A DNA stretch of 64,000 nucleotides from a virus (Duplodnaviria > Caudoviricetes). The translations under genes and the position numbers were made by a program. Location: the IMG/VR virus record IMGVR_UViG_3300021255_004427, positions 1-64,000 of that record; one strand, written 5' to 3'. Numbering within the stretch: position 1 is the first letter of the stretch; each line of letters starts with the position of its first letter. Of this stretch, positions 5,166-20,778 are shown piece after piece. The notes beneath the pieces were generated by a model that was not told where the DNA came from, did not search any database, and was given only the letters and a program-made list of their open reading frames with translations.

Positions 5166-6095
5166 TTATGCGGCGAAATCGATGGCTTCTTCAGCCGGAG
5201 CGTCGATGCCTGCACCTTCATTCACAATGGCTTCACTGCGGTCCGTGTTGTCCTTGATGATAATCGTCTTGTTGACGATGGACAACAGGTCACGGGCGGT
5301 TTCCTGCTCGGAGCCTTCTTTGATTTCACGGCCAACAACCAAAGAACCATTGGCTTTTACCAGTTTGTGCTTGCCATTGAGCTTGAAGCCGGAAGCAAGG
5401 CTGATGCGATAATTGCGTCCCTTAAAGGTCGTGGACGCAAAACCTTTACTGAAGGTCAGCTCCATGTTTTCCATATCCAGCGGCAGATTGCTGTACTTCA
5501 GCTCCCAGCCAAAGATGGCGTTGTGACCCATCACGCGGATGGACTTAAACTTTTCGAGCGCCGCCTTCAGGTCGAGGAATACGCCTTTCGCATAGGCAAT
5601 GTAGCTGTTGCCATACTTGCCGGCATTGGTCGGGCTGGAAATGTGCTCAACTTCTTTTGCCGTGAGCACTTCGTTGGAACCCTTGCCAATGCGGTTGAGC
5701 ATGCCGGAAATGCGGCGAGCCTCAAAGTCATTGACATAAAGAATTAGATGGTCTTTGCCATACTCTGCGGCCTTATGGAGAGCCTGACGTACACCGTTCA
5801 ACGTCGCAACGGGCGCGGTCATAACTTCACCCGTCTTCTTGTTTACGGCCTTGGCCACAACAGCGGGCTCAACGATTTCCTGGGCAATATCGCCGGCAAC
5901 CAGACCGACATAACCCCGGGAACTGACGACACTCATGATAACCGTGTTGTTCTTGAGTTCCTCCTCGCGTTTTGCGCGGGCTTTTTCCGTCAGCACATTG
6001 GTTGCCTCCATCTGCTTATCGAGGTTTGCCATCAATGCTTCGCGGCGGGATACCTTGTTTGCTTCTGCCTTAATCATTTCATTTACGTTTGCCAT
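5166..6095 (-). CDS. hypothetical protein
   Basis: AAGGAGTG RBS before ATG 6095; biased codon usage; ends FAA. Confidence 0.8.
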   Translation of the reverse strand: MANVNEMIKAEANKVSRREALMANLDKQMEATNVLTEKARAKREEELKNNTVIMSVVSSRGYVGLVAGDIAQEIVEPAVVAKAVNKKTGEVMTAPVATLNGVRQALHKAAEYGKDHLILYVNDFEARRISGMLNRIGKGSNEVLTAKEVEHISSPTNAGKYGNSYIAYAKGVFLDLKAALEKFKSIRVMGHNAIFGWELKYSNLPLDMENMELTFSKGFASTTFKGRNYRISLASGFKLNGKHKLVKANGSLVVGREIKEGSEQETARDLLSIVNKTIIIKDNTDRSEAIVNEGAGIDAPAEEAIDFAA

Positions 6096-6297
6096 AAATA
6101 AAACACTCCTTTTTCTTATCCCGCTTTTTATCAGCATTTCGCTTCAGCGGGCTACAAATGAACATTTCTGGACTACTGTCCGTTTTCTGGGGTTACGACG
6201 GTGAAAGGATAAAATCAGCTCAGCCCTGCTTACAGGAGACAGACGTAAGTTAGTTATATAATCTGTATGTATGCGGGCGGAAAAATCCTCTCAAAAT

Positions 6298-6325
6298 AAA
6301 CAAGACAATCGTCTGCGAAGCAGAC
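6298..6325 (-). promoter_or_regulatory. GNA-triloop hairpin element copy 1 (candidate phage-RNAP promoter for leftward genes)
   Basis: plus strand AAACAAGACAA-tc-GTCTGC-GAA-GCAGAC. Confidence 0.6.
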
Positions 6326-6465
6326 AAGAGTTCTGTTCTTGGAAAGGGGATTTTTACTTTGGGATTTAAGCCTTTCATAGTGCGCCGAAAAATGTAGGAG
6401 GCAATAAACATTCTTCGACGTACTATGAGGGGCTCAAAGCTCCTCTTTTTTGCCAAGGTGGGGGT

Positions 6466-6735
6466 TTATGCGGCGGCCTCTGCCTCTTTGTCCACAAGAT
6501 GCAGTAAGTCACCATAGGTGGTATGGGCGGTGAAGAAGATGGTCTCGCCGGCCTCACTCTTAAGGCGGGCGGCTGTTACGACGTTTCCTTCAAGGGTGTC
6601 CCTGCGGATAACGTCAAGTTCACTGCCGCCACTTACGATATGGAAGCTATCGCAAAGAGTGGTCAGTCTCTTGGCCGGCAAGAACCGGTAGTAGCTTTCA
6701 GGGAATACGCTTTCCAGGTCATTCTGAAATACCAT
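6466..6735 (-). CDS. hypothetical protein
   Basis: 89 aa, AAAGGA RBS, ends EAAA. Confidence 0.7.
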   Translation of the reverse strand: MVFQNDLESVFPESYYRFLPAKRLTTLCDSFHIVSGGSELDVIRRDTLEGNVVTAARLKSEAGETIFFTAHTTYGDLLHLVDKEAEAAA

Positions 6736-6821
6736 AGGTCATTTCCTTTCTTTGATAAAAAATAGGCCCCTGACGCATAGGGGAAGCCCATAGGGGGTTG
6801 GGGAGCGCCAGGAGCCCATAA

Positions 6822-6849
6822 AAACAAAGCAATATCGCCCGAAGGGCGA
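6822..6849 (-). promoter_or_regulatory. GNA-triloop hairpin element copy 2
   Basis: AAACAAAGCAA-ta-TCGCCC-GAA-GGGCGA. Confidence 0.55.
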
Positions 6850-6924
6850 AGTGGAATTTGGACGAAGACGGCACTATCCAGACAAGAGGATAATTACTTG
6901 CGGCGTCTCCAGCCAAAATATCGG

Positions 6925-7092
6925 TTATGCCGCTATTTTATACTCGGCATACTTTTCTTCCGCAAGGCGGTCATAGTCCCTGCGGGTCATCTTCCGCTTG
7001 GCGCGGTCACGAAGCATTCTTGCTTCGCGGCCTTCGCTGTAGATGCGGTTATGTTTACGGATTTTTTCTGTGTTTGCATTTGTATTAAACAT
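6925..7092 (-). CDS. small basic hypothetical protein
   Basis: GAAAGGCAGG RBS before ATG 7092; ends KIAA. Confidence 0.65.
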   Translation of the reverse strand: MFNTNANTEKIRKHNRIYSEGREARMLRDRAKRKMTRRDYDRLAEEKYAEYKIAA

Positions 7093-7111
7093 GATTAGCA
7101 ACCTGCCTTTC

Positions 7112-7285
7112 TTAACGAATGTTTCTTGCGACGGCGTAGAATACAACCGCGCCGGTTGCAATCACGTCTACTGCCTGTTCTGCTACGGCCTTGGCCTCAC
7201 CGACAAATTTCTGCCGGCGGGTCAAAACCTTCTCGTCACTTACTGCCTTGTCGTCTCCTAAATACCATTTGATAAATCTTTTCAT
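7112..7285 (-). CDS. 57-aa hypothetical protein (not in ORF track)
   Basis: MKRFIKWYLGDDKAVSDEKVLTRRQKFVGEAKAVAEQAVDVIATGAVVFYAVARNIR; AAGGGA RBS. Confidence 0.55.
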   Translation of the reverse strand: MKRFIKWYLGDDKAVSDEKVLTRRQKFVGEAKAVAEQAVDVIATGAVVFYAVARNIR

Positions 7286-7338
7286 ATACATTCAGTCCCT
7301 TCGTCTTCTAAAAAATCAACAGCAAGCGACGCAAGTTT

Positions 7339-7746
7339 TTACGCGGCTTCTTTGTCGATTACCGGCTCAGTAGTAAAACTGCCGTACGGTTTAATGTGTT
7401 CGTCCTTGACCGGAGTGCGGTACTTCTTGCATACTGTATCAAGTTCACCCTCCAGGATGTTTACCGTGCTCTTGCAGAGTTCGAACAGACTCTTGCCAAC
7501 GCCGATTACGTTCTTGATGAGACCGGCGTTGCGGCTGAAGATGCCCAGCACATCGCAGAAGAAATTGTCGTTGCTGGCAATGGTGACAATAGCCTCGCCA
7601 TCTACATGGTTCACGCTGAAGCGAATGGGGCCATCTACCTCATACTGGTCTTCACGGGCAAAGGTCTGGCCGAAGGATTCCATCAGCTTCTTTACGGCGA
7701 GCATTTCTTTAGCGTTAAAATACATTTTCATTTCCATGGTGTTCAT
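7339..7746 (-). CDS. hypothetical protein
   Basis: 135 aa, AAGGAG RBS, ends KEAA. Confidence 0.75.
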   Translation of the reverse strand: MNTMEMKMYFNAKEMLAVKKLMESFGQTFAREDQYEVDGPIRFSVNHVDGEAIVTIASNDNFFCDVLGIFSRNAGLIKNVIGVGKSLFELCKSTVNILEGELDTVCKKYRTPVKDEHIKPYGSFTTEPVIDKEAA

Positions 7747-7788
7747 TCTCCTTTTCCAAAACTACACAAATATTTTCGGGCAAAAAAA

Positions 7789-7938
7789 TTAAGCCGCTTT
7801 GCGGGCGGCTTTTTCTTCCAGCGTATTTGGTTTTTGTGCCTTACGAGCTACAAGCTCCAAGGCTTTTCTGATTGCCTCGGCTCTTTCAAACCGTGTTCTC
7901 TGGTCGCCCCATTCAATCGAGATGTACGTCTTTTTCAT
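7789..7938 (-). CDS. 49-aa basic hypothetical protein (not in ORF track)
   Basis: GAAAGGAG RBS; MKKTYISIEWGDQRTRFERAEAIRKALELVARKAQKPNTLEEKAARKAA. Confidence 0.6.
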   Translation of the reverse strand: MKKTYISIEWGDQRTRFERAEAIRKALELVARKAQKPNTLEEKAARKAA

Positions 7939-7983
7939 GATAAACGCTCCTTTCACAATGCGTCCAAAAAATCATCTCAAAAT

Positions 7984-8011
7984 AAACAAGACAATATCGC
8001 CCGGAGGGCGA
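7984..8011 (-). promoter_or_regulatory. GNA-triloop hairpin element copy 3
   Basis: AAACAAGACAA-ta-TCGCCC-GGA-GGGCGA. Confidence 0.6.
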
Positions 8012-8019
8012 AACGGCAG

Positions 8020-8175
8020 TCAGTGGGTATATCTCTTTCTGTTGTCGCGGGATTCTTTCTTGGGAAAGTAGGTTTCCTGAATACTTTCCCAAATGGCTGA
8101 CAGAATTACCCAGCCAATGAGAATGACAAAATACAAGATACCTGCAAGAAAGAGTAAAACTATCCAGACTTCCAT
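8020..8175 (-). CDS. 51-aa single-pass membrane protein (not in ORF track)
   Basis: AGGAGG RBS; MEVWIVLLFLAGILYFVILIGWVILSAIWESIQETYFPKKESRDNRKRYTH. Confidence 0.6.
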   Translation of the reverse strand: MEVWIVLLFLAGILYFVILIGWVILSAIWESIQETYFPKKESRDNRKRYTH

Positions 8176-8193
8176 TTTTCAATTCCTCCTAAA

Positions 8194-8589
8194 TCACGAT
8201 GCGCGGCGCATAATGGCCGGGCGGTGGATACGGTCAAAGATTGCATTGACAGCCATGCGGGCGGCCTGCTGAACACTGTCGCACCCTACAGCTTTGCCAT
8301 TAGCAAATACCGTGAATGGTTTGCCCTGCGGCTTATCTTCCTCATCGAAGTCCGACACAATCTTGCCGTCTTTCATCAGCCAACTATAAGCTGTTTCTCC
8401 GGTAAGTTTGTCCTTGTACTTCGTAGTGCAACCATGCCGCGATACTATCTCCCAGCGGTCAAAGGAGCCGGGAAGATAATGATGGATAACCAGCTCGTAG
8501 GCAAGCGTAGCAAACTTGCCGTAGGTTACGTCCCAAACAGGAATTATCATAACATTATTACGGACGATTTTCAATGCATACTTTTTCAT
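8194..8589 (-). CDS. hypothetical protein
   Basis: 131 aa, GGGAG RBS. Confidence 0.7.
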   Translation of the reverse strand: MKKYALKIVRNNVMIIPVWDVTYGKFATLAYELVIHHYLPGSFDRWEIVSRHGCTTKYKDKLTGETAYSWLMKDGKIVSDFDEEDKPQGKPFTVFANGKAVGCDSVQQAARMAVNAIFDRIHRPAIMRRAS

Positions 8590-8609
8590 GGCATATCTCC
8601 CTTTCTATT

Positions 8610-9041
8610 TTACGCTACACCATTTTTCTCTGAATAAATGGGCTCTCCACTCCAGGTTTTCCAAAGATATGGATATTCCTCGCGGATTCTGGACATAGGC
8701 AGACTGATATGCCGGAAGTCTTTTTGGCGAACTCCCTTGTAGGCATACCATACAGTATGGTTGATACCGAAGTATTCCAGTAGCCTGCTCACTTTTTCTG
8801 CCGTGCAAAGCGACATGTCTGCACTGGCATACTCACGGAGCCAGCCACTAAATTCCCTTGCCTCAAAGCTTATGGCAAGACTGCCTACTTTGGTTTCTGC
8901 AATATCGTTTCCTGCAAACATGGGCGCGCTGCATTCACTCAGCACCATATTACATACTTCCAAAGCAAGCTCAGTGGAGCAGGGCCCCGTCATCGAGCCA
9001 CGCTCTTCATTGAGTTTGTCTCTTAATTCCTCTTTTGTCAT
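8610..9041 (-). CDS. hypothetical protein
   Basis: 143 aa, AAGGAG RBS. Confidence 0.7.
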   Translation of the reverse strand: MTKEELRDKLNEERGSMTGPCSTELALEVCNMVLSECSAPMFAGNDIAETKVGSLAISFEAREFSGWLREYASADMSLCTAEKVSRLLEYFGINHTVWYAYKGVRQKDFRHISLPMSRIREEYPYLWKTWSGEPIYSEKNGVA

Positions 9042-9054
9042 TGCTTGCGCTCCT

Positions 9055-9462
9055 TTATTTTTTGCACTGGCCGAAGGCCTTTTTTACCAGTTCTTCTTTG
9101 GTCACACCTTCCTGATAAGGGAACACTCCCCTCCAACTGGCGGCGTAGTTTATACAGTTCGGCTCTTCCTCGCGCTCCATAGGATGCACATCTTTTGCCG
9201 TTGCAAACACATATGGTCTTGAAAGCGAACCATTTTCTGCTTCCCAGATAGACACGCAAATGTTTTGCGGCTGGAAGTTTTCGCTTTCTGCAACCTCATG
9301 CTCTATAATGCGTAAACATGGTTTGTTTGACAGCACGGCATTAAAAGCATTTGCTTTTGCCACGAACACTTCTGCGTCCTTGCGGGCGGCAAATACCTGT
9401 TCGATATTCACTTCAGGAGTTCCGTCATAGTATATTTCAGATTCCACAACATAGATAGTCAT
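9055..9462 (-). CDS. hypothetical phage protein
   Basis: 135 aa, AAAGGAAG RBS, MTIYVV N-terminus typical of small phage proteins. Confidence 0.7.
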   Translation of the reverse strand: MTIYVVESEIYYDGTPEVNIEQVFAARKDAEVFVAKANAFNAVLSNKPCLRIIEHEVAESENFQPQNICVSIWEAENGSLSRPYVFATAKDVHPMEREEEPNCINYAASWRGVFPYQEGVTKEELVKKAFGQCKK

Positions 9463-9845
9463 AGCTACTCTTCCTTTCTGTTATAGAGAAAAACAAACCT
9501 TCTCAAAAACATGATAAAAAAAAGAAAACACCGGGCAAACCACAAAATCAGCTTGCCCGGAGAAGAAAAATATCATGACTTTGAGAAGGCCCCAAACGGT
9601 ATGTTTGGGAACCTCCCCTTTTGTTTTTTTACTATAGGAGGGAGCAATCCCTTGCCTTAGGACTGCTCACACATGACACCAGGATTTTGCTGATATCATC
9701 TGTGAGAAGCCATAACGACCTCTCCTGGTTTTGCGCAAGTGTCGAGAATGCTGGAACATTCTTCCTGTGCACATAACCGTTCCATCTGTAAGTGTCGGAA
9801 GCATTCCAGTGCTTCTCCTACACGTCAGGAACAATCTCTCATGAA

Positions 9846-9873
9846 AAACAAGACAACCGTTCGCGGAGCGAAC
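9846..9873 (-). promoter_or_regulatory. GNA-triloop hairpin element copy 4
   Basis: AAACAAGACAA-cc-GTTCGC-GGA-GCGAAC. Confidence 0.6.
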
Positions 9874-9901
9874 AGCTGTCTTTACCTAAGAAACCTCGAT
9901 G

Positions 9902-10180
9902 TCAATCCAACTGGTATGCCGTGCCGTACCCATAGAAGACAATATCGAACATACCGTCAAACGGGCTGGGGTCAATACGATAACCTTCCCATGATTCCGT
10001 TATGTTATCCTGGAAAGACTCGGTCTTAAGGTCAAAACCGAAGTATCGTTTTGCGTTGCTGTCGTCGGAATCGATACAGGAGCTCCATTCATTGCCGCCA
10101 TCTTCCTCCTCGGCAATATATCTGATTTTATCAATGCCAATCTCTTTAATCTTCTTGTTAAGCTCTTTTACGTCAAACAT
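9902..10180 (-). CDS. small acidic hypothetical protein
   Basis: AGGAGG RBS before ATG 10180. Confidence 0.65.
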   Translation of the reverse strand: MFDVKELNKKIKEIGIDKIRYIAEEEDGGNEWSSCIDSDDSNAKRYFGFDLKTESFQDNITESWEGYRIDPSPFDGMFDIVFYGYGTAYQLD

Positions 10181-10220
10181 ATTAATTTCCTCCTGTAAAA
10201 ACAAAAAACATATTCAAAAT

Positions 10221-10251
10221 AAACAAGACAACCTATCGCCCGGAGGGCGAT
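10221..10251 (-). promoter_or_regulatory. GNA-triloop hairpin element copy 5
   Basis: AAACAAGACAA-cct-ATCGCCC-GGA-GGGCGAT (spacing +2). Confidence 0.55.
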
Positions 10252-10275
10252 GAGGCATGAGCTAATAGCTCGATG

Positions 10276-10755
10276 TTATGCGGCAATCTTCTCGATGGCA
10301 CAGTCCTTTACCGCACCAGCAATGATACGGCATTTGTTTGCAGGAGAAGATGCAAGATACTCGGCGAGGTCAAACTTGGTGACAACCTTGTACTTGCGCT
10401 TCGATGCCGTAGTAAATACAGCCCCGGCGCTCAGAACAGATTCACTATCCACCTGGGGTTTCATTCCCTCCTCGGCCGAAGGCCCCATTGCCATCTGGGG
10501 CACCTCGACGACATCTGCCTTTACCATGGCCATGGCGACCTGCTGGGGAGTAACGCCCTTAACATTTTGGGCGCGCATTTTCCTTCCGTCTACCCACTCT
10601 GCTTTTAACAGACCAAGTACGTTAGAAGTAATACACCCTCTTATAGCTAAGGGCACTACAAATGCCTCGGAATTAGCTGTGGCATTATGCAGCATTAATG
10701 CACATAATCCAAACAGAGCCTTTCTTTCATGTGCAGTCATTTTATTGAGTAACAT
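10276..10755 (-). CDS. hypothetical protein
   Basis: AAGGAG RBS before ATG 10755; ends KIAA. Confidence 0.7.
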   Translation of the reverse strand: MLLNKMTAHERKALFGLCALMLHNATANSEAFVVPLAIRGCITSNVLGLLKAEWVDGRKMRAQNVKGVTPQQVAMAMVKADVVEVPQMAMGPSAEEGMKPQVDSESVLSAGAVFTTASKRKYKVVTKFDLAEYLASSPANKCRIIAGAVKDCAIEKIAA

Positions 10756-10841
10756 ATTTATACACATCTCCTTTACAGGCAATAAAATAAGCCCCAGCCA
10801 TACAGACTGGAGCTTACATGTTATTTTTAGTTATTCATAAG

Positions 10842-10869
10842 AAACAAGACAATCGTCTGCGGAGCAGAC
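10842..10869 (-). promoter_or_regulatory. GNA-triloop hairpin element copy 6
   Basis: AAACAAGACAA-tc-GTCTGC-GGA-GCAGAC. Confidence 0.6.
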
Positions 10870-10903
10870 AACGGTAGTAACCACATCACAACGGACGCAT
10901 ATT

Positions 10904-11128
10904 TTACGCCGCGTAATCCATGACAATATTGCTATCTATTGTCTTTTTAGCTTCTTCAATAAGAGCCTTTACCCGCTTCAACACAGGAGACTTATACCAT
11001 ACTTCTCCACACTGTGGGCATACTGCTCCAGGAACATTCTTTATAGATATCAGATAACCATTATAATGCGCATAGTATACAGTGAGCTTATCACCATTTA
11101 TGCTGCCGCCGCAAGTTGCACAAGTCAT
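10904..11128 (-). CDS. YgiT/MqsA-type zinc-finger protein (putative antitoxin)
   Basis: CATCGG...IKNVPGAVCPQCGEVWY signature; directly downstream of DUF4258-like gene. Confidence 0.85.
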   Translation of the reverse strand: MTCATCGGSINGDKLTVYYAHYNGYLISIKNVPGAVCPQCGEVWYKSPVLKRVKALIEEAKKTIDSNIVMDYAA

Positions 11129-11129
11129 G

Positions 11130-11453
11130 TTATTTCCTCCTCGTCTTAAAGTCGTCTTCCCATTTGTCGCTACTGGGAATATATGCTGTTATAAGCGATA
11201 TTTCATCATTGTCACCATCTAACCCAACAACCACATGGATAGGGCGCCCATTCATATGTATATAAAACATCAGACATGATGGCAGTGGCGTACTCCATGG
11301 ACGTTCCTCTATAACTTCACCATACAATATGGTTTGTTCTACTTCGTCTATGGTTATATTTCTCTCGTCCAGTCGTTCACTGGCATGGCGAGAAATCCTT
11401 ACGCCATATTGAAGACACAGCTTTCTTATTTTTGATATATTCACAACTCTCAC
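11130..11453 (-). CDS. DUF4258-like protein (putative RelE-fold toxin)
   Basis: SRHASERLDERNIT...GEVIEE...PSCL...RPIHVV...ITAYIPS..W..DFKTRR. Confidence 0.85.
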   Translation of the reverse strand: MRVVNISKIRKLCLQYGVRISRHASERLDERNITIDEVEQTILYGEVIEERPWSTPLPSCLMFYIHMNGRPIHVVVGLDGDNDEISLITAYIPSSDKWEDDFKTRRK

Positions 11454-11461
11454 CTACTCTA

Positions 11462-11490
11462 ATTATAACAGAGAGAAGCAAAGTTCTCAA
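11462..11490 (-). promoter_or_regulatory. sigmaA-type promoter of the TA pair
   Basis: minus strand TTGAGA-17-TATAAT with TG extension. Confidence 0.65.
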
Positions 11491-11493
11491 GAT

Positions 11494-11521
11494 AAACAAG
11501 ACAATGGCCTGCGAAGCAGGC
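11494..11521 (-). promoter_or_regulatory. GNA-triloop hairpin element copy 7
   Basis: AAACAAGACAA-tg-GCCTGC-GAA-GCAGGC. Confidence 0.6.
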
Positions 11522-11850
11522 TCGGAGGAAGACATGGTGTAACCCCATACTCCCTCCTGACCGACTCGATGTGACAGCGAAAAGACGCTCCTTTCCGGCG
11601 GTCATCGCCGGATATCGAAGAAGACAAGTGTATCGAGCCCCTGCCGTATCTGGCGGCCAGGAGCCTGACCAGATGCCGCGCATGAAGCCCGAAGGGCGGC
11701 TTCGGCGAGCGAGCAATGTCTCGAACACACGCCATCTCTTTTTGCCCGAAGACAAGATGCAGACCACACCTTTGTTGGTGCGATACCGTTGCGGGCGGCG
11801 TGGGGCCGAGACGAGCGAAGCGAGCCGAAGGCCTTTCTATATCTTATCTC

Positions 11851-11879
11851 TTGACTTAATCAACTATATATGGTATAAT
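11851..11879 (+). promoter_or_regulatory. strong sigmaA-type promoter
   Basis: TTGACT-17-TATAAT with TG extension. Confidence 0.75.
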
Positions 11880-11911
11880 TAAATTACAATCAAGAGAAAG
11901 AAGGGGTAGTT

Positions 11912-12169
11912 ATGAAACTAACCGATGCGCAGCGCGGTGCAATCACTTCAGCAGTAGCCGACTACATCGAATACTACGTAAATGAAGATACAGATTCGTT
12001 GGACATTAAAGATAGCAAACTATCTTCGTTATCGTGGGGCCAGTTGTACAACGTCCTTTGCTTGATATATAATACTGGTTCTCCCGATCAGACTATCCAG
12101 AATAAGCTGGATAGTAAAGAGTGGGGCGCTCCAGAGGAAGTAATTCAATATATCGAGCTTACTTTATAA
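11912..12169 (+). CDS. 85-aa acidic protein, moron-like (opposite strand, own promoter)
   Basis: AAGGGG RBS, consensus promoter upstream. Confidence 0.7.
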   Translation: MKLTDAQRGAITSAVADYIEYYVNEDTDSLDIKDSKLSSLSWGQLYNVLCLIYNTGSPDQTIQNKLDSKEWGAPEEVIQYIELTL

Positions 12170-12706
12170 TTACCAGCCGCGGCTATTAACATCCCAAACA
12201 GACATCATAACACCCACCAACTCTTCGCGCTCTTCGAAAGCACGAATAATGGTGGCCTCGCTAAAGACACAGGATAATACGGAGTGCATCGCCTCCATAC
12301 CATTCTGTGTCTTTTTACTGTCTGCGTGACCTGGCGCAGCAGGATAGGTTCGTGCGGTTACATAACGCGAATCATTATCTGCAATATCCGAAGACGCATC
12401 CCGATCAAACTTTAAGTTTATCCGCACATATCTTGCAGAGTCATTTGTCATAATTTTAAAATCTGTTCCTTCAAACAAGTCTTCTCTCCAATCAATGTCT
12501 ACTTTCATAAACAACCCGGTTACTGAGCGAAAATACCCCAGCATCCATGCCATAACCACTTCCATATATTTCCCGGCAGGAAAGTCCGTGTTGCTTAGTC
12601 CTTCCAATCTGAAATCGGAAAACATCTTCTTGGACAAGCCGGCCTTAAAAGCCTTTCTTTTAAACACCATTAATTCTTTTGCGTTGTTAATATCTTTCTG
12701 AGTCAT
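12170..12706 (-). CDS. hypothetical protein, possible PD-(D/E)xK-like nuclease fold
   Basis: AGGAGG RBS; D..EGTDF...INLK pattern (weak). Confidence 0.6.
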   Translation of the reverse strand: MTQKDINNAKELMVFKRKAFKAGLSKKMFSDFRLEGLSNTDFPAGKYMEVVMAWMLGYFRSVTGLFMKVDIDWREDLFEGTDFKIMTNDSARYVRINLKFDRDASSDIADNDSRYVTARTYPAAPGHADSKKTQNGMEAMHSVLSCVFSEATIIRAFEEREELVGVMMSVWDVNSRGW

Positions 12707-13094: not shown

Positions 13095-14366
13095 TTATGC
13101 AGCCATATCTTTCCAGTCGAGCTTTGCACACTCGCCATCCAGGATATGTACTCTGTTTTCCGCCCGCGTTACAGCCGTATAGAGCCAGCGGGCATTGGTC
13201 AACTGTTCGTTGCACAGCTTGGATGTGCCGGTGATATATACTTCCTCCCACTGACTGCCCTGACTCTTATGAGCTGTAATAGCATAGCCATAGGTGCAGA
13301 TAGTTACAGTTGGGGAAAGCATCGGGCGCCCACACAAATCCACAAAATCTCTTTTGTAGCCATCACGCCAATAGCGAAGGCCGGCGAGATTCTGTGGTGC
13401 AATGGAAGCGCCATTATAGCTAGGTACAAGAATCAAGTGATGCACCTCACCATCTTCTTCGTACCGATAAAACTCTGCCACGATAGGCAGTGCTTTCTCC
13501 CGATTGGGCACACGGATAAACAGCTTATCCTTACCCAGAAGCTCAATATTTTCAGGCACCTTCATGGTTTCTCCATTACGCAGAAAAGCGCCGTTGGATA
13601 TACCCATAATTGGTTCACCTGCCTGCAGAATCTTTCCGTCAAAGCCAAGTGCTTTGCGGACACCCTGGTTGAAGCGAATACGCGCCTCATTCTTCCAGGT
13701 AACCATGGTGATGTCTTTACCCGCTTTTAGCTTGGCGAGGTAATCATTCCACAGTACCGGCTTACTCTCAACCGATACGTCACCATTGGTAGAGGTCGGA
13801 GAGAATGCCGTCTTTTTCTGGCGCAAAGCTGTTGCCCAATCCAGGATAGCGCTGCCATCACCCTGACGCATTACCTGTGTCAACACAGACTTGTGTTCGT
13901 TATCAAACACGGTGCGACTATATTTACCAACGGGTGGGAGCTGGAACGGGTCTCCCATATAAAGGATCTTGCTTTCCTTCTTGGTGGCAAACTCCTCGAG
14001 ATCGTCCAATAGTTTGTCGGACAACATGGATGCCTCGTCGCAAATGATTAGCAGCCGCTTATCGTCGTCATCTTTAGTGGCGGCCTTCTTAATGAAGTTA
14101 CCGTAACGGTCAACGGTGTACAGGAGCTTATGTACGGTCATGGCTCCTTTGTTCCCCTTGCGGCGCAACACTTCTGCCGCTTTGTTTGTGGGCGCGATAA
14201 ATACCACACGATACTTATCCTTCTTGGCAATACCGGCAATCTCGCCAGCCAAAGTTGTCTTGCCTGTGCCGGCATAGCCCATAAGCGTCCATGCCAGCAC
14301 ATCGCCTTTAATAAGCTGAGCTTCAATATTCTCCAGAGCTTCTTTCTGCTGTTTATTCCATTCCAT
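13095..14366 (-). CDS. RecD/Dda-like SF1B DNA helicase
   Basis: GYAGTGKT, APTNKAA, DEASM, GDPFQLPPV, YAITAHKSQGS, YTAVTRA motifs. Confidence 0.92.
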   Translation of the reverse strand: MEWNKQQKEALENIEAQLIKGDVLAWTLMGYAGTGKTTLAGEIAGIAKKDKYRVVFIAPTNKAAEVLRRKGNKGAMTVHKLLYTVDRYGNFIKKAATKDDDDKRLLIICDEASMLSDKLLDDLEEFATKKESKILYMGDPFQLPPVGKYSRTVFDNEHKSVLTQVMRQGDGSAILDWATALRQKKTAFSPTSTNGDVSVESKPVLWNDYLAKLKAGKDITMVTWKNEARIRFNQGVRKALGFDGKILQAGEPIMGISNGAFLRNGETMKVPENIELLGKDKLFIRVPNREKALPIVAEFYRYEEDGEVHHLILVPSYNGASIAPQNLAGLRYWRDGYKRDFVDLCGRPMLSPTVTICTYGYAITAHKSQGSQWEEVYITGTSKLCNEQLTNARWLYTAVTRAENRVHILDGECAKLDWKDMAA

Positions 14367-14428: not shown

Positions 14429-16297
14429 TTACTCTTCCGTATCTACAACTACAACAATGCCGTCATAGCTTTCAAGATGTTCGGCCACCGGCTTAACACC
14501 AGTAGCTTCTTTTACCATCTTGTCATAGCCCTTTTCGAGCTTTATACGGAGCTCATTGGTGAGCCATTCCGGTACATCGCTGGTATAAATGGTCATCAGC
14601 TTCTTGCTATTAAGCGTCATCTGCATATAGTCCGTGGTTACAACTTTCGTCGTAGCCTTAACTGTATGCGGGCGGAGCTGAATCTGCATACCAACGACGT
14701 CTTTTGTGGACACTTTAGCTGCGCGGGCAGCACAAGTATCGAGCATCGTGCCTTCGCCATCCATCTGGTCATCCTTGTCAAACAGGATGCAGAAAGACTT
14801 GAGCGTAAAGCCCTGGTCAGCACGCATGCCCATACCGCAAGTGTGAGAAGACAGGCGGGTAGCTGCATCAACGAGCATCGTACCCGTTACTTTCTCGCCT
14901 TCACGGATGGCAAATTCACCGTGAGTAGCATTGTAGAAGATTTTGTTAAATTTCTTAACATTCTCTTCCGTGGAAGCATCAAAGAACATCATCGTATCTT
15001 GACGCTTTTGAGAGGTAGAGTAGATATTACATCTATCTGCATCAAGCGTCATAATGATATCTTCGTCCTTAACCCACTCCTTCTCAATTCTTACAAGGTC
15101 GTGCTTCTGCATGCGATATGCAGGCTCATAACCATTCAGAAGGGCATAACAGTCCCGAAGCTCGATAAGAACGGATACACCATCACCATGAACAGGCACA
15201 TATTTTTCCTGTTCAATGTCGTACACGGAACTAATATTCTTGGTGATATAAATCTTGCCACCTTCCTTCAGGCTTTTGATTTTACCCAGAAGATAACGCA
15301 GGCTACGAGCGGCCTTCTCCTGAATTTTCTTGCCGGACGTTTCATCCGCACGAACAAGGTCAGAGAAGTCAACTGTAGCTACTTTATCCGTAGCAAGACG
15401 TTCACCAGAGAACTGATTACGGCCAATAGAATTGCCAAGTACGACACCTTTCTTGGCATACGGAGCCGTAAAGGCCGTTACAGGAGCAGCCGTGATGTCT
15501 ACCAGGCACTGGCAACCAACACCATTATTTGCCTGGATAAACTTAAGGCTCTGCATCTGTACAGTAGCCATGCCTTTATCCGCCTTCTTCATAAGTGTGT
15601 TGCGGACTTTGTTATCCAGCTTGTGGTTGCCATGTTTCAGAATAGAACCAAGCTGAGTACGGAGGCTCGGCTTTTCGGCAGCCTGCAGGACGACAGCACG
15701 ATAACTGCCCTTAACTACCTGTTGGGAGATACCTTTGCGGCCAAGGATTTCGTCCAGTTCGGACAAGTCTTTAATAGCCGTCTTATGAGCCGCAATCTTT
15801 GCAGCATATACTGCGCCGATGCCATTAAGTTTCATAAGCTCAGAGATAACACCGCAATTGATGTTGATTTCTTTCTGCTCAGAAACAACTTCTCCCTTAA
15901 TTACAATGCCGAGCTTTTTACGCTCGACAAGGCTCATAATGCGGTCGCGAGAGATACCGGCTGCAGCCATATCGAGAGGCGTACGGAATTTCTTCGCCTG
16001 TGCATCTTTCCAGTAGCGGCAGATGCGGTTAACCTCACGGTGCGTAAACACAGCGCAGAGAACCATTGGGCTCTGTTCGTTAATGTTAATTAACGGGTGA
16101 TTGGTACGGACATACCAATTGTGGCTAAGAACCTTCATGGATTCCCAGGAGATACCAATATTGGCAAGTGCTTTAAACGTAGTAGCACTTACACCACGTT
16201 CGCTGCAGAACGCAAAGATTTTCTCAGCATCCTTGCGGCAGATACCAGCGACCTCAAGTTCAGAAATGGATGCGAACAGTAAATTTTCTCTAGTCAT
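14429..16297 (-). CDS. ComEA-type HhH domain fused to the N-terminal half of a putative YonO/QDE-1-like RNA polymerase
   Basis: ININ...ELMKLNGIGAVYAAKI (HhH); MDGEGTML and QIQLRPHTVKA match the DGxG and QxR..K motifs of cellular-RdRP/YonO enzymes. Confidence 0.6.
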   Translation of the reverse strand: MTRENLLFASISELEVAGICRKDAEKIFAFCSERGVSATTFKALANIGISWESMKVLSHNWYVRTNHPLININEQSPMVLCAVFTHREVNRICRYWKDAQAKKFRTPLDMAAAGISRDRIMSLVERKKLGIVIKGEVVSEQKEININCGVISELMKLNGIGAVYAAKIAAHKTAIKDLSELDEILGRKGISQQVVKGSYRAVVLQAAEKPSLRTQLGSILKHGNHKLDNKVRNTLMKKADKGMATVQMQSLKFIQANNGVGCQCLVDITAAPVTAFTAPYAKKGVVLGNSIGRNQFSGERLATDKVATVDFSDLVRADETSGKKIQEKAARSLRYLLGKIKSLKEGGKIYITKNISSVYDIEQEKYVPVHGDGVSVLIELRDCYALLNGYEPAYRMQKHDLVRIEKEWVKDEDIIMTLDADRCNIYSTSQKRQDTMMFFDASTEENVKKFNKIFYNATHGEFAIREGEKVTGTMLVDAATRLSSHTCGMGMRADQGFTLKSFCILFDKDDQMDGEGTMLDTCAARAAKVSTKDVVGMQIQLRPHTVKATTKVVTTDYMQMTLNSKKLMTIYTSDVPEWLTNELRIKLEKGYDKMVKEATGVKPVAEHLESYDGIVVVVDTEE

Positions 16298-16390
16298 GAT
16301 AAAATCCTCCTCGGGCTCGACGGCCCTTTTTTCTAAAAAACAAAATATGACAGACTATTTATCAAGCGCCGTCTGTCAGGGCGCAAAAAA

Positions 16391-19300
16391 TCAGAAGAAA
16401 TCAATGTCGATACCGACAGCTTCAGTGCCATCAAAAGTAAGGGCAGTAGTTTCTTCTTTAGAATCTTCCGGCAGAGCATCATATTCTGCATTCTTCTGCT
16501 CAACTTCCGTCAGCACAACAACGGCACGATTGCAATTGCTGTCAGCATAAACAACGGAAACTGCACCGTTCAAACCTTCATAGAAAGAGCGAATAGCGGC
16601 ATCGTAGTTGTACTGATCATGATTCTTGCGAACAAATACATCTACATCCGTATCCACCGTAAGAGCCTGGCTATGAACAGCGGCTTCCTTGTTGTAGTGC
16701 TTACCATCCTTGCTGCCTTTCACATAGAGGCCGGCAAGAACTTCCGTGTTCTCTTTTATGCCAAGGCGGGTATACTTACCATCCTTAACATTTGCAAGAA
16801 GAATACGATGGCCAACCTTGGAAGATATAGCATCAACGATAGCTTTGTTAATGACAACCTGCTCATCGTTAATCATCCACTGTTCTTCTGCGGTTTCACC
16901 ATCCCATTCCGGATTCGGCATCCAAACAGATTTGAGATCAAGCTCAAATGCTACCTGGGTACGATCCACTTCGGGGATGCTGATAAAGTCCGTCATTGGG
17001 CGGACAATTGCCGGGGAGTCATCACGCATAGCAATCTGATACATGCCATCCAGAACATTTAAAGACACATAAAGGTCTTCAATTTTCTTCATTTTGGCTG
17101 TATAGACTTCGCCTTCTTTTACGATAATGTTCTGCCCCTCAGTCAGAGACTCCAGAGCTTCTACATTATTGTAACGAGCATTAATGAACTCCACGGCTTC
17201 ATTATTGTCACTCATCTGAATAGCAGCATAAGCCGTCTCCTCTTTGAGAAGCTTGCTCATATTGCTGCCTGCAGAAGTCGTGATGTCTTCGCCTCCTGCA
17301 AGATAACCAACGAGGTCGTCAGGAGAGACCTTGCTGTTATCACGAGCCACCATCCAACGAATGGTATTGGAGATAGCGTCGAAAGCATCGTCATACTTCT
17401 CGTGCAGAGCTTTGCGGATTGCATCACTCTTAGAGTTGCTGACGTCGCCATACTCATCGGCATTTGCGGCAAGCATTGCTTTGCGGTCTTCACGATAGAC
17501 TGCATTGATTGCGCCACCCATGCTGATTGCTACCTGCAGGCGGTTTTCAATACGCTGGTCTGCAATGTGCATGATAGCTACGTCGTAAGCATTTTCACGA
17601 CGAGCCTTGTACTCTGCAGAATTAACTGCTGCTTTGTAGCGGGCAATTAATTCATTGAGCTTTTCCATGGATTTTCCAATTGCATACCGGCGATAGTTGG
17701 CGAAGAAGTCGTTGAACACAACAACCTTACGATCGTCCTGTCCCTTTCCTTCTGCCGGCCAGAAGAGCTGAACCGGCTCTTCTGCCATTACACCACGGAA
17801 ACCTTCGCGGCTGATTTCATTGCCGTTCATGTCAAGAAGAATAACCTTTTCGTCCTTACGGAGCAGGTCATCTTCCTTGAGTTCGGCTTTAACATCAGCT
17901 TCCGGGTCTTTGCGGAATGTCTCCCAGTTGATAACGAAACGCGCACCAAACTTCAGCGGCGTAACCGTCATCGTTGCCTTGAGAATGGCTACAAAGTCCG
18001 TATAAACCTTATAGAACTTCTTTTCTGCATCGATGGTGCATTCCTGAGTGTGACGGATAAGAACATCGAAGTCTTTAATGATTTCGAGCAGCGTATTCCA
18101 CTGCTCTTCTACCGTGCCTTCAAAGCGAGTCATATGAACCGCTTTCTCAAATGCATGATAGGCATCAAGAGTTTCGCCGTTCTCATAAGTCTTTGGAGCC
18201 GTGCTTGCGGTTTCGCGGCCATAAGCATCTTCGCCCCAAGTAAGCGGGGTGTGATACTTGCCGTCGCCAGCGTCAGCTTCCGTACCTGCTTCCCATACCG
18301 TAGAGAAGCAGGAGATATAAAGTGCTTTTACCTCATCACTCCAATCGATAGCACAAAGCCCCTGAGTAAGGACACGGCCAGCGTTAGTCACTGGCCCTAC
18401 TTTTTCGTTATGATTTTGATTAATCATATGAAAGTTTGTGGAGTACATACCTCCATCGATCTCATAACGCTCTCCTTTTTCCTCCGGCTTTGTCGGCACA
18501 ATATCAACAGCCAGCGGTTTAAAACCGTAGTTGTTGAGGAACCAGGGGATATCCTTCTGACCTGCACGATGCAGGATCACAGAGGTCTTATCCCCATCAC
18601 GGTCAGAACCGGCCAGCACACTGCCGATAGCTGCCAGGTCAGCAGGCATCTCGATAATACCTTCCTTGATATTGGCATACTGTTCAGCAGCGCAGATGGC
18701 TTCCTCTTCCGTGAGATAGCCACGCTCAACGAGGTTCATCAGAGCATCGTTGATTTCCTCGTCGTCCATAAAATGGACAAGTATGGTTTCGCGGGTGCCA
18801 ACAGACGGATACTTCATGAGCGCACCGTAACGATCTTCTCTGGCGGCATTGATACCGTCAAAGAAGCGAGTAGCACGAGGATCGACAACATTCATGATGT
18901 TGCCATTGATACCCGTAACGCCAACTTTCAGTGCTTCTTCAACACCGAAACGGCTCTTAATGAGCTCATACACCGGGTCAATCGAAATCATGCTCGTGTG
19001 GCCGTCAAGATGATAACGGTCGAGCTGAACATGATTGGAGAGCGTGCGGGCGATGTCGTTCGCAGCTCCTTTGATGAGCTGCGGCCACACATTAAGCGCA
19101 CCGCTGTTCATGCCCATAAGCAAGGAAGAAGTATAACTAGCGTCAACTTCTTCAAAACCATGATAACCATCGCGGCAACGACCATCGAGGTCAGACACCT
19201 CGTTAATCGTATGGTCAATAGCGGTTTTGATGACTTCATCCAGGTCGCTAAGCACCTGTTCTGTATCGGCGCCATTTTTAATAGCGTCGTTTGCATTGCG

Positions 19301-19609
19301 GAAGAGCTTCATCCACATCTGTGCGGACGAATATACGTTCTTATCTTCATCCTCTGCATGAGGAATCATAAGAACATTCATCCCGGTTGGGGTGGTTACA
19401 TCAAAGATGTCCTTCCAGAAGTTACGGTCACCTACAATCTCCGGCAGTTCAATACCGTTGGCAATAGCCTTAAAGGCATTGCCCTTGACATTAGCTGCCG
19501 CGTTTACACGCAGAGCTTTCTCTGCGGCTTTTGCCTTTTCCCCGGCATTGATTTTAGCTACGATTTCTTCGTGGTTAATGTTTGCATTTGCGATAGTCTG
19601 AGTCTTCAT
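16391..19609 (-). CDS. catalytic (DxDGD) half of a putative YonO/QDE-1-like two-barrel RNA polymerase, 1072 aa
   Basis: ordered motifs SAQ, GHTSMISIDP, MKYP, LAGSDRDGDK, VGPVTN, QECTIDAEK; AAGGAGG RBS before ATG 19609. Confidence 0.7.
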   Translation of the reverse strand: MKTQTIANANINHEEIVAKINAGEKAKAAEKALRVNAAANVKGNAFKAIANGIELPEIVGDRNFWKDIFDVTTPTGMNVLMIPHAEDEDKNVYSSAQMWMKLFRNANDAIKNGADTEQVLSDLDEVIKTAIDHTINEVSDLDGRCRDGYHGFEEVDASYTSSLLMGMNSGALNVWPQLIKGAANDIARTLSNHVQLDRYHLDGHTSMISIDPVYELIKSRFGVEEALKVGVTGINGNIMNVVDPRATRFFDGINAAREDRYGALMKYPSVGTRETILVHFMDDEEINDALMNLVERGYLTEEEAICAAEQYANIKEGIIEMPADLAAIGSVLAGSDRDGDKTSVILHRAGQKDIPWFLNNYGFKPLAVDIVPTKPEEKGERYEIDGGMYSTNFHMINQNHNEKVGPVTNAGRVLTQGLCAIDWSDEVKALYISCFSTVWEAGTEADAGDGKYHTPLTWGEDAYGRETASTAPKTYENGETLDAYHAFEKAVHMTRFEGTVEEQWNTLLEIIKDFDVLIRHTQECTIDAEKKFYKVYTDFVAILKATMTVTPLKFGARFVINWETFRKDPEADVKAELKEDDLLRKDEKVILLDMNGNEISREGFRGVMAEEPVQLFWPAEGKGQDDRKVVVFNDFFANYRRYAIGKSMEKLNELIARYKAAVNSAEYKARRENAYDVAIMHIADQRIENRLQVAISMGGAINAVYREDRKAMLAANADEYGDVSNSKSDAIRKALHEKYDDAFDAISNTIRWMVARDNSKVSPDDLVGYLAGGEDITTSAGSNMSKLLKEETAYAAIQMSDNNEAVEFINARYNNVEALESLTEGQNIIVKEGEVYTAKMKKIEDLYVSLNVLDGMYQIAMRDDSPAIVRPMTDFISIPEVDRTQVAFELDLKSVWMPNPEWDGETAEEQWMINDEQVVINKAIVDAISSKVGHRILLANVKDGKYTRLGIKENTEVLAGLYVKGSKDGKHYNKEAAVHSQALTVDTDVDVFVRKNHDQYNYDAAIRSFYEGLNGAVSVVYADSNCNRAVVVLTEVEQKNAEYDALPEDSKEETTALTFDGTEAVGIDIDFF

Positions 19610-19700
19610 GATAATTTTCCTCCTTTTGGGGCTCGACGGCCCCTCTACAAAAAAACAAAAATTGCCCAGTTTAAGGTCGTATGGCAGGACCAAAACAAAA

Positions 19701-20231: not shown

Positions 20232-20412
20232 GATAAATCTCTCCTTTCGGGCTCGACAGCCCAATACAAAAATAAAAAATAAAAATGGATAAAAAGAGTC
20301 CAGTATCCCAATAAGACACTGGACTCAAACAATAAATAATGGTACAATGAGATAAACAGGGGGGAGTCCGGTGCTCTCGCTCACCATCATCCTCCCCCTG
20401 GTCAGACTACCC

Positions 20413-20520
20413 TTACTTCATCAGCGCATCAACGATGAACTTCAGTAAGAAGTATCTGACCGCAACTTCAACTGCTGCCAACACGAGGCACAGCAACAGC
20501 ATCTGTATCAGTTTTCTCAT
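20413..20520 (-). CDS. 35-aa hydrophobic peptide, type I toxin-like
   Basis: AAGGAGGTG RBS; MRKLIQMLLLCLVLAAVEVAVRYFLLKFIVDALMK; flanking hairpins. Confidence 0.6.
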   Translation of the reverse strand: MRKLIQMLLLCLVLAAVEVAVRYFLLKFIVDALMK

Positions 20521-20625
20521 GGCATTCACCTCCTTTCAGGTAGTGCCAAACAATCTGTGCTGGCATGAGCACATTATGAAGCCCCCCGAATCAATTAAGG
20601 TTCAGGGGCTTTAAATATGCTTATG

Positions 20626-20778
20626 TCAATACTCATAGCGACCAAGCAGCAACCAATTATCGCTGCCAGGGCGGCTCACCTCCAATACGATTACATGATA
20701 GGCCGACAAATGGAGCTTGCGTACAAGCCAGCCATTTTTTCTGAAAACCATGGCTTTTTCAGTCAACAACTTCTCCAC
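20626..20778 (-). CDS. 50-aa hypothetical protein
   Basis: GAGGAGG RBS + GTG; MEKLLTEKAMVFRKNGWLVRKLHLSAYHVIVLEVSRPGSDNWLLLGRYEY. Confidence 0.5.
   Translation of the reverse strand: MEKLLTEKAMVFRKNGWLVRKLHLSAYHVIVLEVSRPGSDNWLLLGRYEY

Follow-up and report, generated by a model that had tools for sequence, protein, structure and literature searches.

The leftward gene arm of an uncultured 224-kb gut jumbo phage carries a set of short intergenic elements, each made of a box of about 20 nucleotides (nt) and an adjacent hairpin, that are real, selected, strand-specific structures. The box is very probably a promoter of a phage polymerase. We further suggest, with somewhat less than even confidence, that the hairpin belongs to this promoter as an integral component acting at the DNA level and that the promoter is read by a split two-barrel RNA polymerase encoded nearby. 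The phage is represented by the IMG/VR virus record IMGVR_UViG_3300021255_004427 (224,101 bp, linear, estimated to be 95% complete), which is contained in metagenome sequencing runs from animal gut, feces and sheep; the initial 64 kb of this record, the whole stretch of DNA analysed here, is referred to below as the window. Genes are directed leftward between approximately 21.5 kb and position 1 and rightward beyond approximately 21.5 kb. The window's own genome (G000) was compared with two related records, G002 and G001, in which the large polymerase protein is 93% and about 80% identical, respectively, to that of the window. Searches of the phage collection with the large polymerase protein P0001 (tblastn) and with positions 6000-12000 (blastn) found no cultured relatives of either the polymerase or the region.

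Part of the box, the 11-mer AAACAAGACAA, occurs exactly on the + strand of the window at 6298, 7984, 9846, 10221, 10842 and 11494, against a chance expectation, by our arithmetic, of approximately 0.03 exact matches in 64 kb on both strands. The site at 6822 (AAACAAAGCAA) differs from this motif by two mismatches, and its G001 orthologue carries the canonical sequence. A further exact match lies near the other end of the record, at 219574 (+), and, should the record be circularly permuted, would extend the same leftward arm; no copies beyond these eight emerged from a genome-wide weight-matrix scan. A perfect stem of 6-7 bp with a 3-nt C-G(A/G)A-G loop comes 1-4 nt after every motif copy, so that the combination of motif and hairpin reported for seven window sites in the preliminary description of this sequence is borne out, with six exact copies and the one imperfect copy. 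The same is true of the reported spacing: the offset of the loop start from the motif is 9 nt in all seven window copies but the one at 10221, where it is 11 nt. Measured from the loop centre, the box is 10 nt away in most copies and 9 or 12 nt away in a few. At 219574, a 7-bp stem goes together with a 1-nt spacer, which indicates that the position of the loop, not the length of the spacer, is conserved. Genome-wide, C-GRA-G hairpins with a stem of at least 6 bp are present on the + strand only in the eight elements and in a tandem hairpin at 219606, and the - strand of the whole genome has no such hairpin with a GAA or GGA loop and a stem of at least 6 bp. All copies are located between leftward open reading frames (ORFs), upstream of leftward genes as previously described, the only overlapping ORFs (6250-6456 and 11487-11735) being doubtful ones, and each of the eight, always on the same strand, heads one to four small leftward genes. 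On the mRNA strand, the core box of about 20 nt reads TTGTCTTGTTTATTTTGAGA, the first 7 nt being clade-specific.

The hairpin was analysed in an alignment of 20 distinct copies from the three genomes, which substantiates the stem covariation first noticed in the window. All six core pairs are paired in 100% of the copies and five of the six vary on both sides, yielding a covariation score of 0.82 versus 0.23 in shuffled alignments, a value reached by none of the 500 shuffles; pairing falls to 30-47% once the partner columns are slid. No G-U or G-T pair occurs in any of the 120 cells of the six core pairs, and the stem variants include GTCTGC, TCGCCC, TCGCGC, GTTCGC, GCCTGC, GCACCCC and GCCCGC. 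Compensated changes are also seen at orthologous sites, where the G000 stem of element 3 (TCGCCC/GGGCGA) corresponds in G001 to TCGCGC/GCGCGA with a GAA loop; loops switch from GGA to GAA between orthologous sites. The closing C-G pair is constant, the adjacent pair is always G/C, the first and third loop positions are invariant G and A, and the middle loop base is A or G only. The resulting heptamer S-C-G-R-A-G-S, GC-only outside the loop, is thus invariant in all 20 copies on the + strand, the template for the leftward genes.

The elements lie 2.9-8.1 kb from two adjacent genes that encode P0001 and P0002 (Table 1). Among 1.8 billion representative proteins, P0001 has 38 homologues, nearly all of which are longer (1200-2160 amino acids, aa) and match it at their C-terminal end; the AGSDxDGD signature is invariant across 18 P0001 homologues. 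In the fused homologue P0005 (1473 aa), residues 59-535 align to P0002 (E 1e-51) and residues 547-1464 to P0001 (E 4e-118). Because P0005 spans P0002 and then P0001, the two window proteins are the halves of one enzyme that has been split, with the gene order reversed. A structure model of P0001 generated from 18 homologues (predicted local distance difference test score, pLDDT, 73) was aligned by VIA-align to maize RDR2 (Z 18.0, 441 residues), QDE-1 (Z 13.4) and the crAss-like gp66 (Z 8.1), with 345-441 residues aligned, compared with Z of about 5 for beta-prime subunits; Foldseek alone retrieved QDE-1 at just E = 0.026. Taken together, the modelled fold and the fused homologue support the assignment of P0001, as the catalytic double-psi beta-barrel half, and of P0002 to a two-barrel RNA polymerase that is split and belongs to the QDE-1/RDR2/gp66 kind, as had been supposed for the genes encoded 3-8 kb from the elements.

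The polymerase operon has repeats of its own. A second type of repeat is located in front of its three genes, at 20249-20262, 19628-19643 and 16313-16326 (minus strand), the only gene-fronting copies in the genome, with a T-rich run, the hairpin GGGC-yGTCGA-GCCC, a Shine-Dalgarno sequence and ATCATG following in this order; its T-rich part (TTGTTTTTTTGTAGAGG) is similar to the downstream half of the box. Upstream of the operon are a small ORF and leader (20366-20644), where contigs of two RNA runs from one study both begin at 20366, and a strong terminator-like hairpin at about 20290-20325.

The link between box and polymerase extends beyond the closest relatives. In a distant set of six loci from five phage lineages, with a fused polymerase 26-38% identical to that of the window, every polymerase gene stands at the head of an arm composed of small genes, and each locus contains 4-10 copies of its own strand-specific intergenic box in front of the small genes (Table 1). 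All of these copies lie downstream of the polymerase gene and none lies upstream. With TGAG as the anchor, the window box and the boxes of L183, L187 and L188 can be aligned gap-free and show a common layout, in which a phage-specific 7-nt block (ACTAAnn versus TTGTCTT) is followed by G/C-TT, a T-rich run and TGAG. The distance from box start to TGAG is 15 nt in these three loci and in the window, 13 nt in L186 and 11 nt in L180. At the sequence level, the arrays look as a promoter family co-evolving with the polymerase would be expected to look and support the interpretation of the box as a phage-polymerase promoter. The version of the box with a hairpin has a narrower distribution. As the preliminary description had asked of related genomes, motif and hairpin co-occur with the polymerase genes, being present only in genomes that carry the split polymerase: three loci with real elements were recovered among at least 114 IMG/VR stretches returned by a pattern scan, and nearly all the rest are single chance matches without a hairpin.

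Two of the distant loci have additional features in the vicinity of the arrays. In L180, a GC-rich cluster of short C-TYC-G hairpins (13750-13960) precedes the first box copy and is similar to a cluster of the window phage at genome position 219.55-219.62 kb; homology between the GC-rich blocks that precede the first box in the two phages was considered and rejected given the unconvincing alignment. In L183, an IS110-family transposase gene (16474-17706) is inserted between the fused polymerase gene and the box array.

Table 1. Elements, polymerase genes and terminator-like hairpins of the window, and box arrays of distant relatives
Feature	Position	Strand	Description	Gene headed, or number of copies
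Element 1	6289..6325	-	mRNA strand: GTCTGC-TTC-GCAGAC, 2 nt, then box TTGTCTTGTTTATTTTGAGA; template loop C-GAA-G	Gene 5166-6137
Element 2	6813..6849	-	Degenerate box TTGCTTTGTTT; hairpin TCGCCC/GGGCGA; template loop GAA	Gene 6466-6735; canonical terminator-like hairpin 6767-6783 between them
Element 3	7975..8011	-	Hairpin TCGCCC/GGGCGA; template loop GGA	49-aa gene starting at 7938
Element 4	9837..9873	-	Hairpin GTTCGC/GCGAAC; loop GGA	Basic 46-aa ORF (ATG near 9797)
Element 5	10212..10251	-	7-bp hairpin ATCGCCC/GGGCGAT; loop GGA; 4-nt spacer	Gene 9902-10182
Element 6	10833..10869	-	Hairpin GTCTGC/GCAGAC; loop GGA	Gene 10276-10782; canonical terminator-like hairpin 10787-10817 between them
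Element 7	11485..11521	-	Hairpin GCCTGC/GCAGGC; loop GAA; first of array	DUF4258/MqsA-like gene pair, 10904-11453 (-)
Canonical intrinsic-terminator-like hairpins with T run	9531-9560, 10787-10817, 7791-7811, 6767-6783	-	Much stronger than the elements	
P0001, beta-prime-like half of polymerase	16391..19609	-	1072 aa; AGSDRDGDK	
P0002, beta-like half of polymerase	14429..16297	-	622 aa; helix-hairpin-helix (HhH) domain; matches N-terminal part of single-chain homologues	
L183 box			CAACTATCTCTTTTTTGTGAGGG	10 copies
L188 and L181 box			AAACTAATnGTTTTnTTTGAGG	9 and 7 copies
L187 box			CAACTAACCGTTT...TGAG	6 copies
L186 box			GACTAGCGCTTCTATGAGG	7 copies
L180 box			TTTAACTGTTTTCTTTGAGG	4 copies

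Transcription of the arm was traced through assembled metatranscriptome contigs, from which strand and true ends cannot be read and in which uncovered stretches, the polymerase genes among them, are uninterpretable. In run X20, two contigs end at 6300 (element 1) and 7986 (element 3), that is, at the same box position, between TTGTCTTG and TTT, 17-18 nt from the loop centre, and both run on toward the downstream genes. The 21 bases shared by the two sites are too few to break an assembly at k=31, so that a coverage edge is the likelier cause of these ends, which hint weakly at 5' ends within the boxes.

From these observations we infer that the elements are composite transcription-start cassettes, the likeliest reader of which would be the split two-barrel enzyme, whose genes lie a short distance upstream in this leftward arm. 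The box would be the core of the cassette, given that the G-TT, the T-rich run and TGAG are common to the distant arrays, with the start probably located inside it, near TTGTCTT-G, and the hairpin would have been added in this clade at a fixed distance from the box. Under negative supercoiling, the inverted repeat would extrude, allowing the template strand to form a very stable d(S-C-G-R-A-G-S) mini-hairpin, and this mini-hairpin might mark and open the site for a sigma-less polymerase of a single-strand-preferring family. The most specific form of this proposal, in which a split two-barrel polymerase of the QDE-1/YonO kind directly recognises the extruded template-strand d(C-GRA-G) mini-hairpin together with the start box, we regard as conceivable but doubtful.

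Several observations weigh against the hairpin being a DNA-level part of a promoter read by the split polymerase. The distant relatives show no uniform hairpin, with assorted stem-loops in front of some box copies and none in front of others; hence, the polymerase family needs no hairpin in general and the hairpin is clade-specific. Kinship among these phages means that the co-occurrence of elements and polymerase is not independent of ancestry, a virion polymerase might be conserved in the relatives as well, and the polymerase genes themselves lack the box. The X20 contig ends come from a single run, and contigs cannot define true ends; the start at which they weakly hint, 17-18 nt from the loop centre, is to be compared with 11-15 nt in N4-type promoters. 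Finally, the hairpin is also stable as RNA: it folds with about -10 kcal/mol (range -9.7 to -22.8, the latter at 9846), is followed after 2-4 nt on the mRNA strand by the U-rich tract UUGUCUUGUUU, and in a permissive scan all seven window hairpins qualify as terminator-like on that strand. Thus, the structure-defined promoter that the preliminary description had tentatively assigned to the split polymerase survives in part: the co-occurrence, the distant arrays and the N4-like chemistry of the hairpin argue for it, and the stability of the RNA form together with the hairpin-less boxes of the relatives argues against it.

Plain intrinsic terminators of the leftward genes would likewise show a GC-rich stem with a U-rich tract after it and be flagged by a permissive scan. 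That the elements are nothing else is, in our estimate, highly improbable. A terminator would not be expected to possess an exactly conserved 11-nt tail, G and C positions included, let alone a tail homologous to the hairpin-less boxes of the relatives. Contigs of runs X3 and X18 bridge element 1 and those of X17 bridge element 3, so the hairpins do not act as tight terminators, and the X20 contigs continue from the box in the downstream direction. Moreover, four elements are followed by separate, far stronger canonical terminators (Table 1), and the space left before the next gene is too small for another promoter. The elements thus form a class distinct from terminators, and any transcript that starts at them must read through the terminators downstream.

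The strand-specific layout of hairpin plus box, the terminators after four elements and the contig ends, which could equally be processing ends, would be compatible with an RNA-level protein-binding or processing site, in the manner of nut or RNase sites, where 5' ends in the box result from cleavage. We consider this explanation improbable, if less so than plain terminators. There are eight copies, one per transcription unit, unlike nut sites; the relatives retain the box without the hairpin; and an Rfam search at E <= 1 over window positions 1-24000 matched no RNA family apart from two microRNA-like chance matches. Besides, UUC and UCC triloops are not known to play any special role in RNA.

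Comparison of the gene content around the elements brings in a further explanation. Between G000 and G001, genes are swapped or absent at 6329-6812, 8019-8233, 9734-10213 and 10762-11488, homology picks up again at or near elements, and the G001 element at 183578 is hybrid-like, combining the flank of element 4 with the hairpin of element 5. The region is hyperplastic and, judging from these comparisons, behaves as reported for the PeSL cassettes of the T4-type phages RB49 and phi1, in which an early promoter is joined to a transcription-terminating stem-loop (PMC2839356). As in PeSLs, promoter and stem-loop units are repeated before small ORFan genes in a hyperplastic region where gene gain, loss and replacement are bounded by the units. 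By analogy, the box could be a phage-polymerase promoter, the hairpin an RNA terminator or insulator, and the whole unit a recombination joint that shuffles small genes, a possibility that we regard as the main rival and rate as real, if on the unlikely side. It would accommodate the performance of the hairpin with UUGUCUUGUUU in the terminator scan and the assorted hairpins before some of the distant boxes, where the upstream folding energy is below background in four of five loci. The invariant G-R-A loop, the GC-only heptamer, the fixed stem length and the fixed loop-to-box distance would remain unexplained by a terminator. The stem-loops of PeSLs differ among themselves in location, length and sequence, and their stems include G-T pairs (PMC2839356), unlike the uniform hairpin described here, with its invariant loop and its core stem free of G-U pairs, and PeSL promoters are of the host sigma-70 type, unlike the box, which is not sigma-70-like in seven of its eight copies. 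Furthermore, contigs of three RNA runs bridge elements 1 and 3, far stronger terminators are present after four elements, and at element 7 there is no leftward protein gene that ends nearby, the nearest end being approximately 650 nt upstream.

Even if the elements are promoters, they might be read by another polymerase, either a virion-packaged enzyme or the host RNA polymerase with a phage factor, which we deem unlikely. Arrays of small genes such as these typically consist of early genes, which an injected polymerase transcribes in N4, phiKZ and P23-45 (PMC4496689, PMC10770324), and the regulon is small, with eight sites in the weight-matrix scan. Giant proteins of 2230, 3102 and 2922 aa are encoded by three consecutive ORFs at genome positions 62400-87291 (window 62400-64000 onward). 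The first of these contains an HNH motif and the third has a match to a PHROG with the label endolysin; the second (3102 aa, at 69148-78456), the candidate for a virion enzyme, has the sequence NGDKDGD and gave a weak lead to an RNA-dependent RNA polymerase (RdRP) cluster in the Atlas feature search (score 0.84). This protein has close homologues only and no match in Pfam, PHROGs or PDB chains, nor in the phage collection (tblastn with residues 1400-2800), and its AlphaFold model is unusable (pLDDT 38). None of the giant proteins matches a virion-polymerase family in PHROGs or Pfam, and a PF00940 search of the genome produced no match, a result of little weight because the control genomes were likewise unmatched. 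As for the host polymerase, the TTGAGA of element 7 doubles as the -35 hexamer of a near-consensus sigma-70-type promoter (TTGAGA-17-TATAAT with TG), and element 7 is the only one with a right-spaced -10 hexamer, which seven of the eight boxes lack. In every lineage, the arrays start downstream of the gene for the fused or split polymerase and never upstream, which speaks against another reader and fits a cascade with that polymerase made first.

Among the individual elements, element 4 as RNA could extend its stem to 15 pairs, with the start of the box included. The small ORF that it heads is followed by approximately 130 untranslated nucleotides up to the terminator at 9531-9560, and the entire cassette is missing in G001. 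The cassette headed by element 7 is missing in G001, too; its DUF4258 and MqsA-like gene pair resembles a toxin-antitoxin pair, the own host-type promoter of which overlaps the element.

Directly upstream of element 7 lies a GC-rich block of approximately 330 nt (11522-11860), in which G000 and G001 are roughly 93-95% identical, as estimated from the alignment, compared with 73-84% for the neighbouring blocks; blastn over 11489-11877 gives 89.4%. The overlapping ORF is broken by indels, the RNA fold of the block has z = -3.8, and C-TTC-G mini-hairpins are present; a structured non-coding RNA and a DNA element are both possible identities of the block. Just upstream of it is a possible TTGATT-17-TATATA promoter. 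Further upstream, a rightward gene for 85 aa (11851-12169, +) within the leftward arm is convergent with the gene at 12170-12706 and has a near-consensus sigma-70-type promoter (TTGACT-17-TATAAT with TG). At the other end of the array, the ends of RNA contigs from two studies, at 6357 and 6362, fall a short way downstream of a possible -10 hexamer, TTAAAT, and a + strand terminator-like hairpin is found at 6427-6445 within the leftward arm.

Little is known of how single-chain or split two-barrel RNA polymerases recognise their promoters, only the motifs of P23-45 having been defined (PMC10770324), and our literature search found no published hairpin promoter for any two-barrel phage polymerase. 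The elements offer a compact, synthesisable candidate promoter that combines a box common to the polymerase family with an N4-like hairpin in one clade and, because both subunits of the enzyme are of a size that can be expressed, lend themselves to in vitro tests that need no cultured host. Should the hairpin be read as DNA, structure-specific promoter recognition would have arisen convergently in two unrelated polymerase folds, the mode known from N4 being independently re-invented by the two-barrel one, and the elements would show how sigma-less, single-strand-preferring polymerases gain entry to a duplex genome.

Among known systems, the early promoters P1-P3 of N4, read by the virion RNA polymerase gp50, have a conserved region from -17 to +1 and a GC-rich heptamer centred at -11, with -10G, -11G and -12A in the loop and a sheared G:A pair; their hairpin is functional on the template strand, and its extrusion is driven by gyrase and stabilised by the single-stranded DNA-binding protein (PMC4496689). 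The elements share with these promoters a stem of 5-7 bp (here 6-7 bp), a 3-nt G-R-A template-strand loop closed by C-G, the GC-rich heptamer, a linear conserved sequence between the hairpin and the start (here only hinted at), and the occurrence of few copies before early-type genes. They differ in the unrelated sequence of the box, in the hinted start at 17-18 nt from the loop centre versus 11 in N4, and in the polymerase, as no T7-like virion enzyme was found here and the phage polymerase that was identified is a two-barrel one. The geometry hinted at here is close to that of the early and middle promoters of LUZ7, in which transcription starts at a G located 13-15 bp downstream of a GC-rich hairpin (stem of 6 bp or more, loop of 3-4 nt); LUZ7, unlike the phage described here, is an N4-like podovirus, the promoters of which are read by T7-type polymerases, namely the virion enzyme and RNAPII with Drc (PMC9163698).

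Among two-barrel polymerases, the promoter of YonO is undefined (PMC5467207), and the crAss-like gp66 has early promoters without a motif and prefers single-stranded DNA as template (bioRxiv 10.1101/2020.03.07.982082). The virion and non-virion polymerases of Thermus phage P23-45 are tied to short repeated motifs ahead of pre-early and early genes; these motifs are linear (AT-rich or GC-rich), a hairpin is not mentioned in the text of the paper, and the enzymes are single-chain rather than split (PMC10770324). As in P23-45, a strand-specific repeated motif before early genes tracks the polymerase gene across relatives. According to what is cited on it in PMC10770324, the non-virion polymerase of AR9 is a multisubunit enzyme that, unlike the enzyme considered here, uses a linear uracil-containing motif with no hairpin; in the same account, this two-barrel polymerase reads its promoter on the template strand, as we propose for the split polymerase and the elements of the window.

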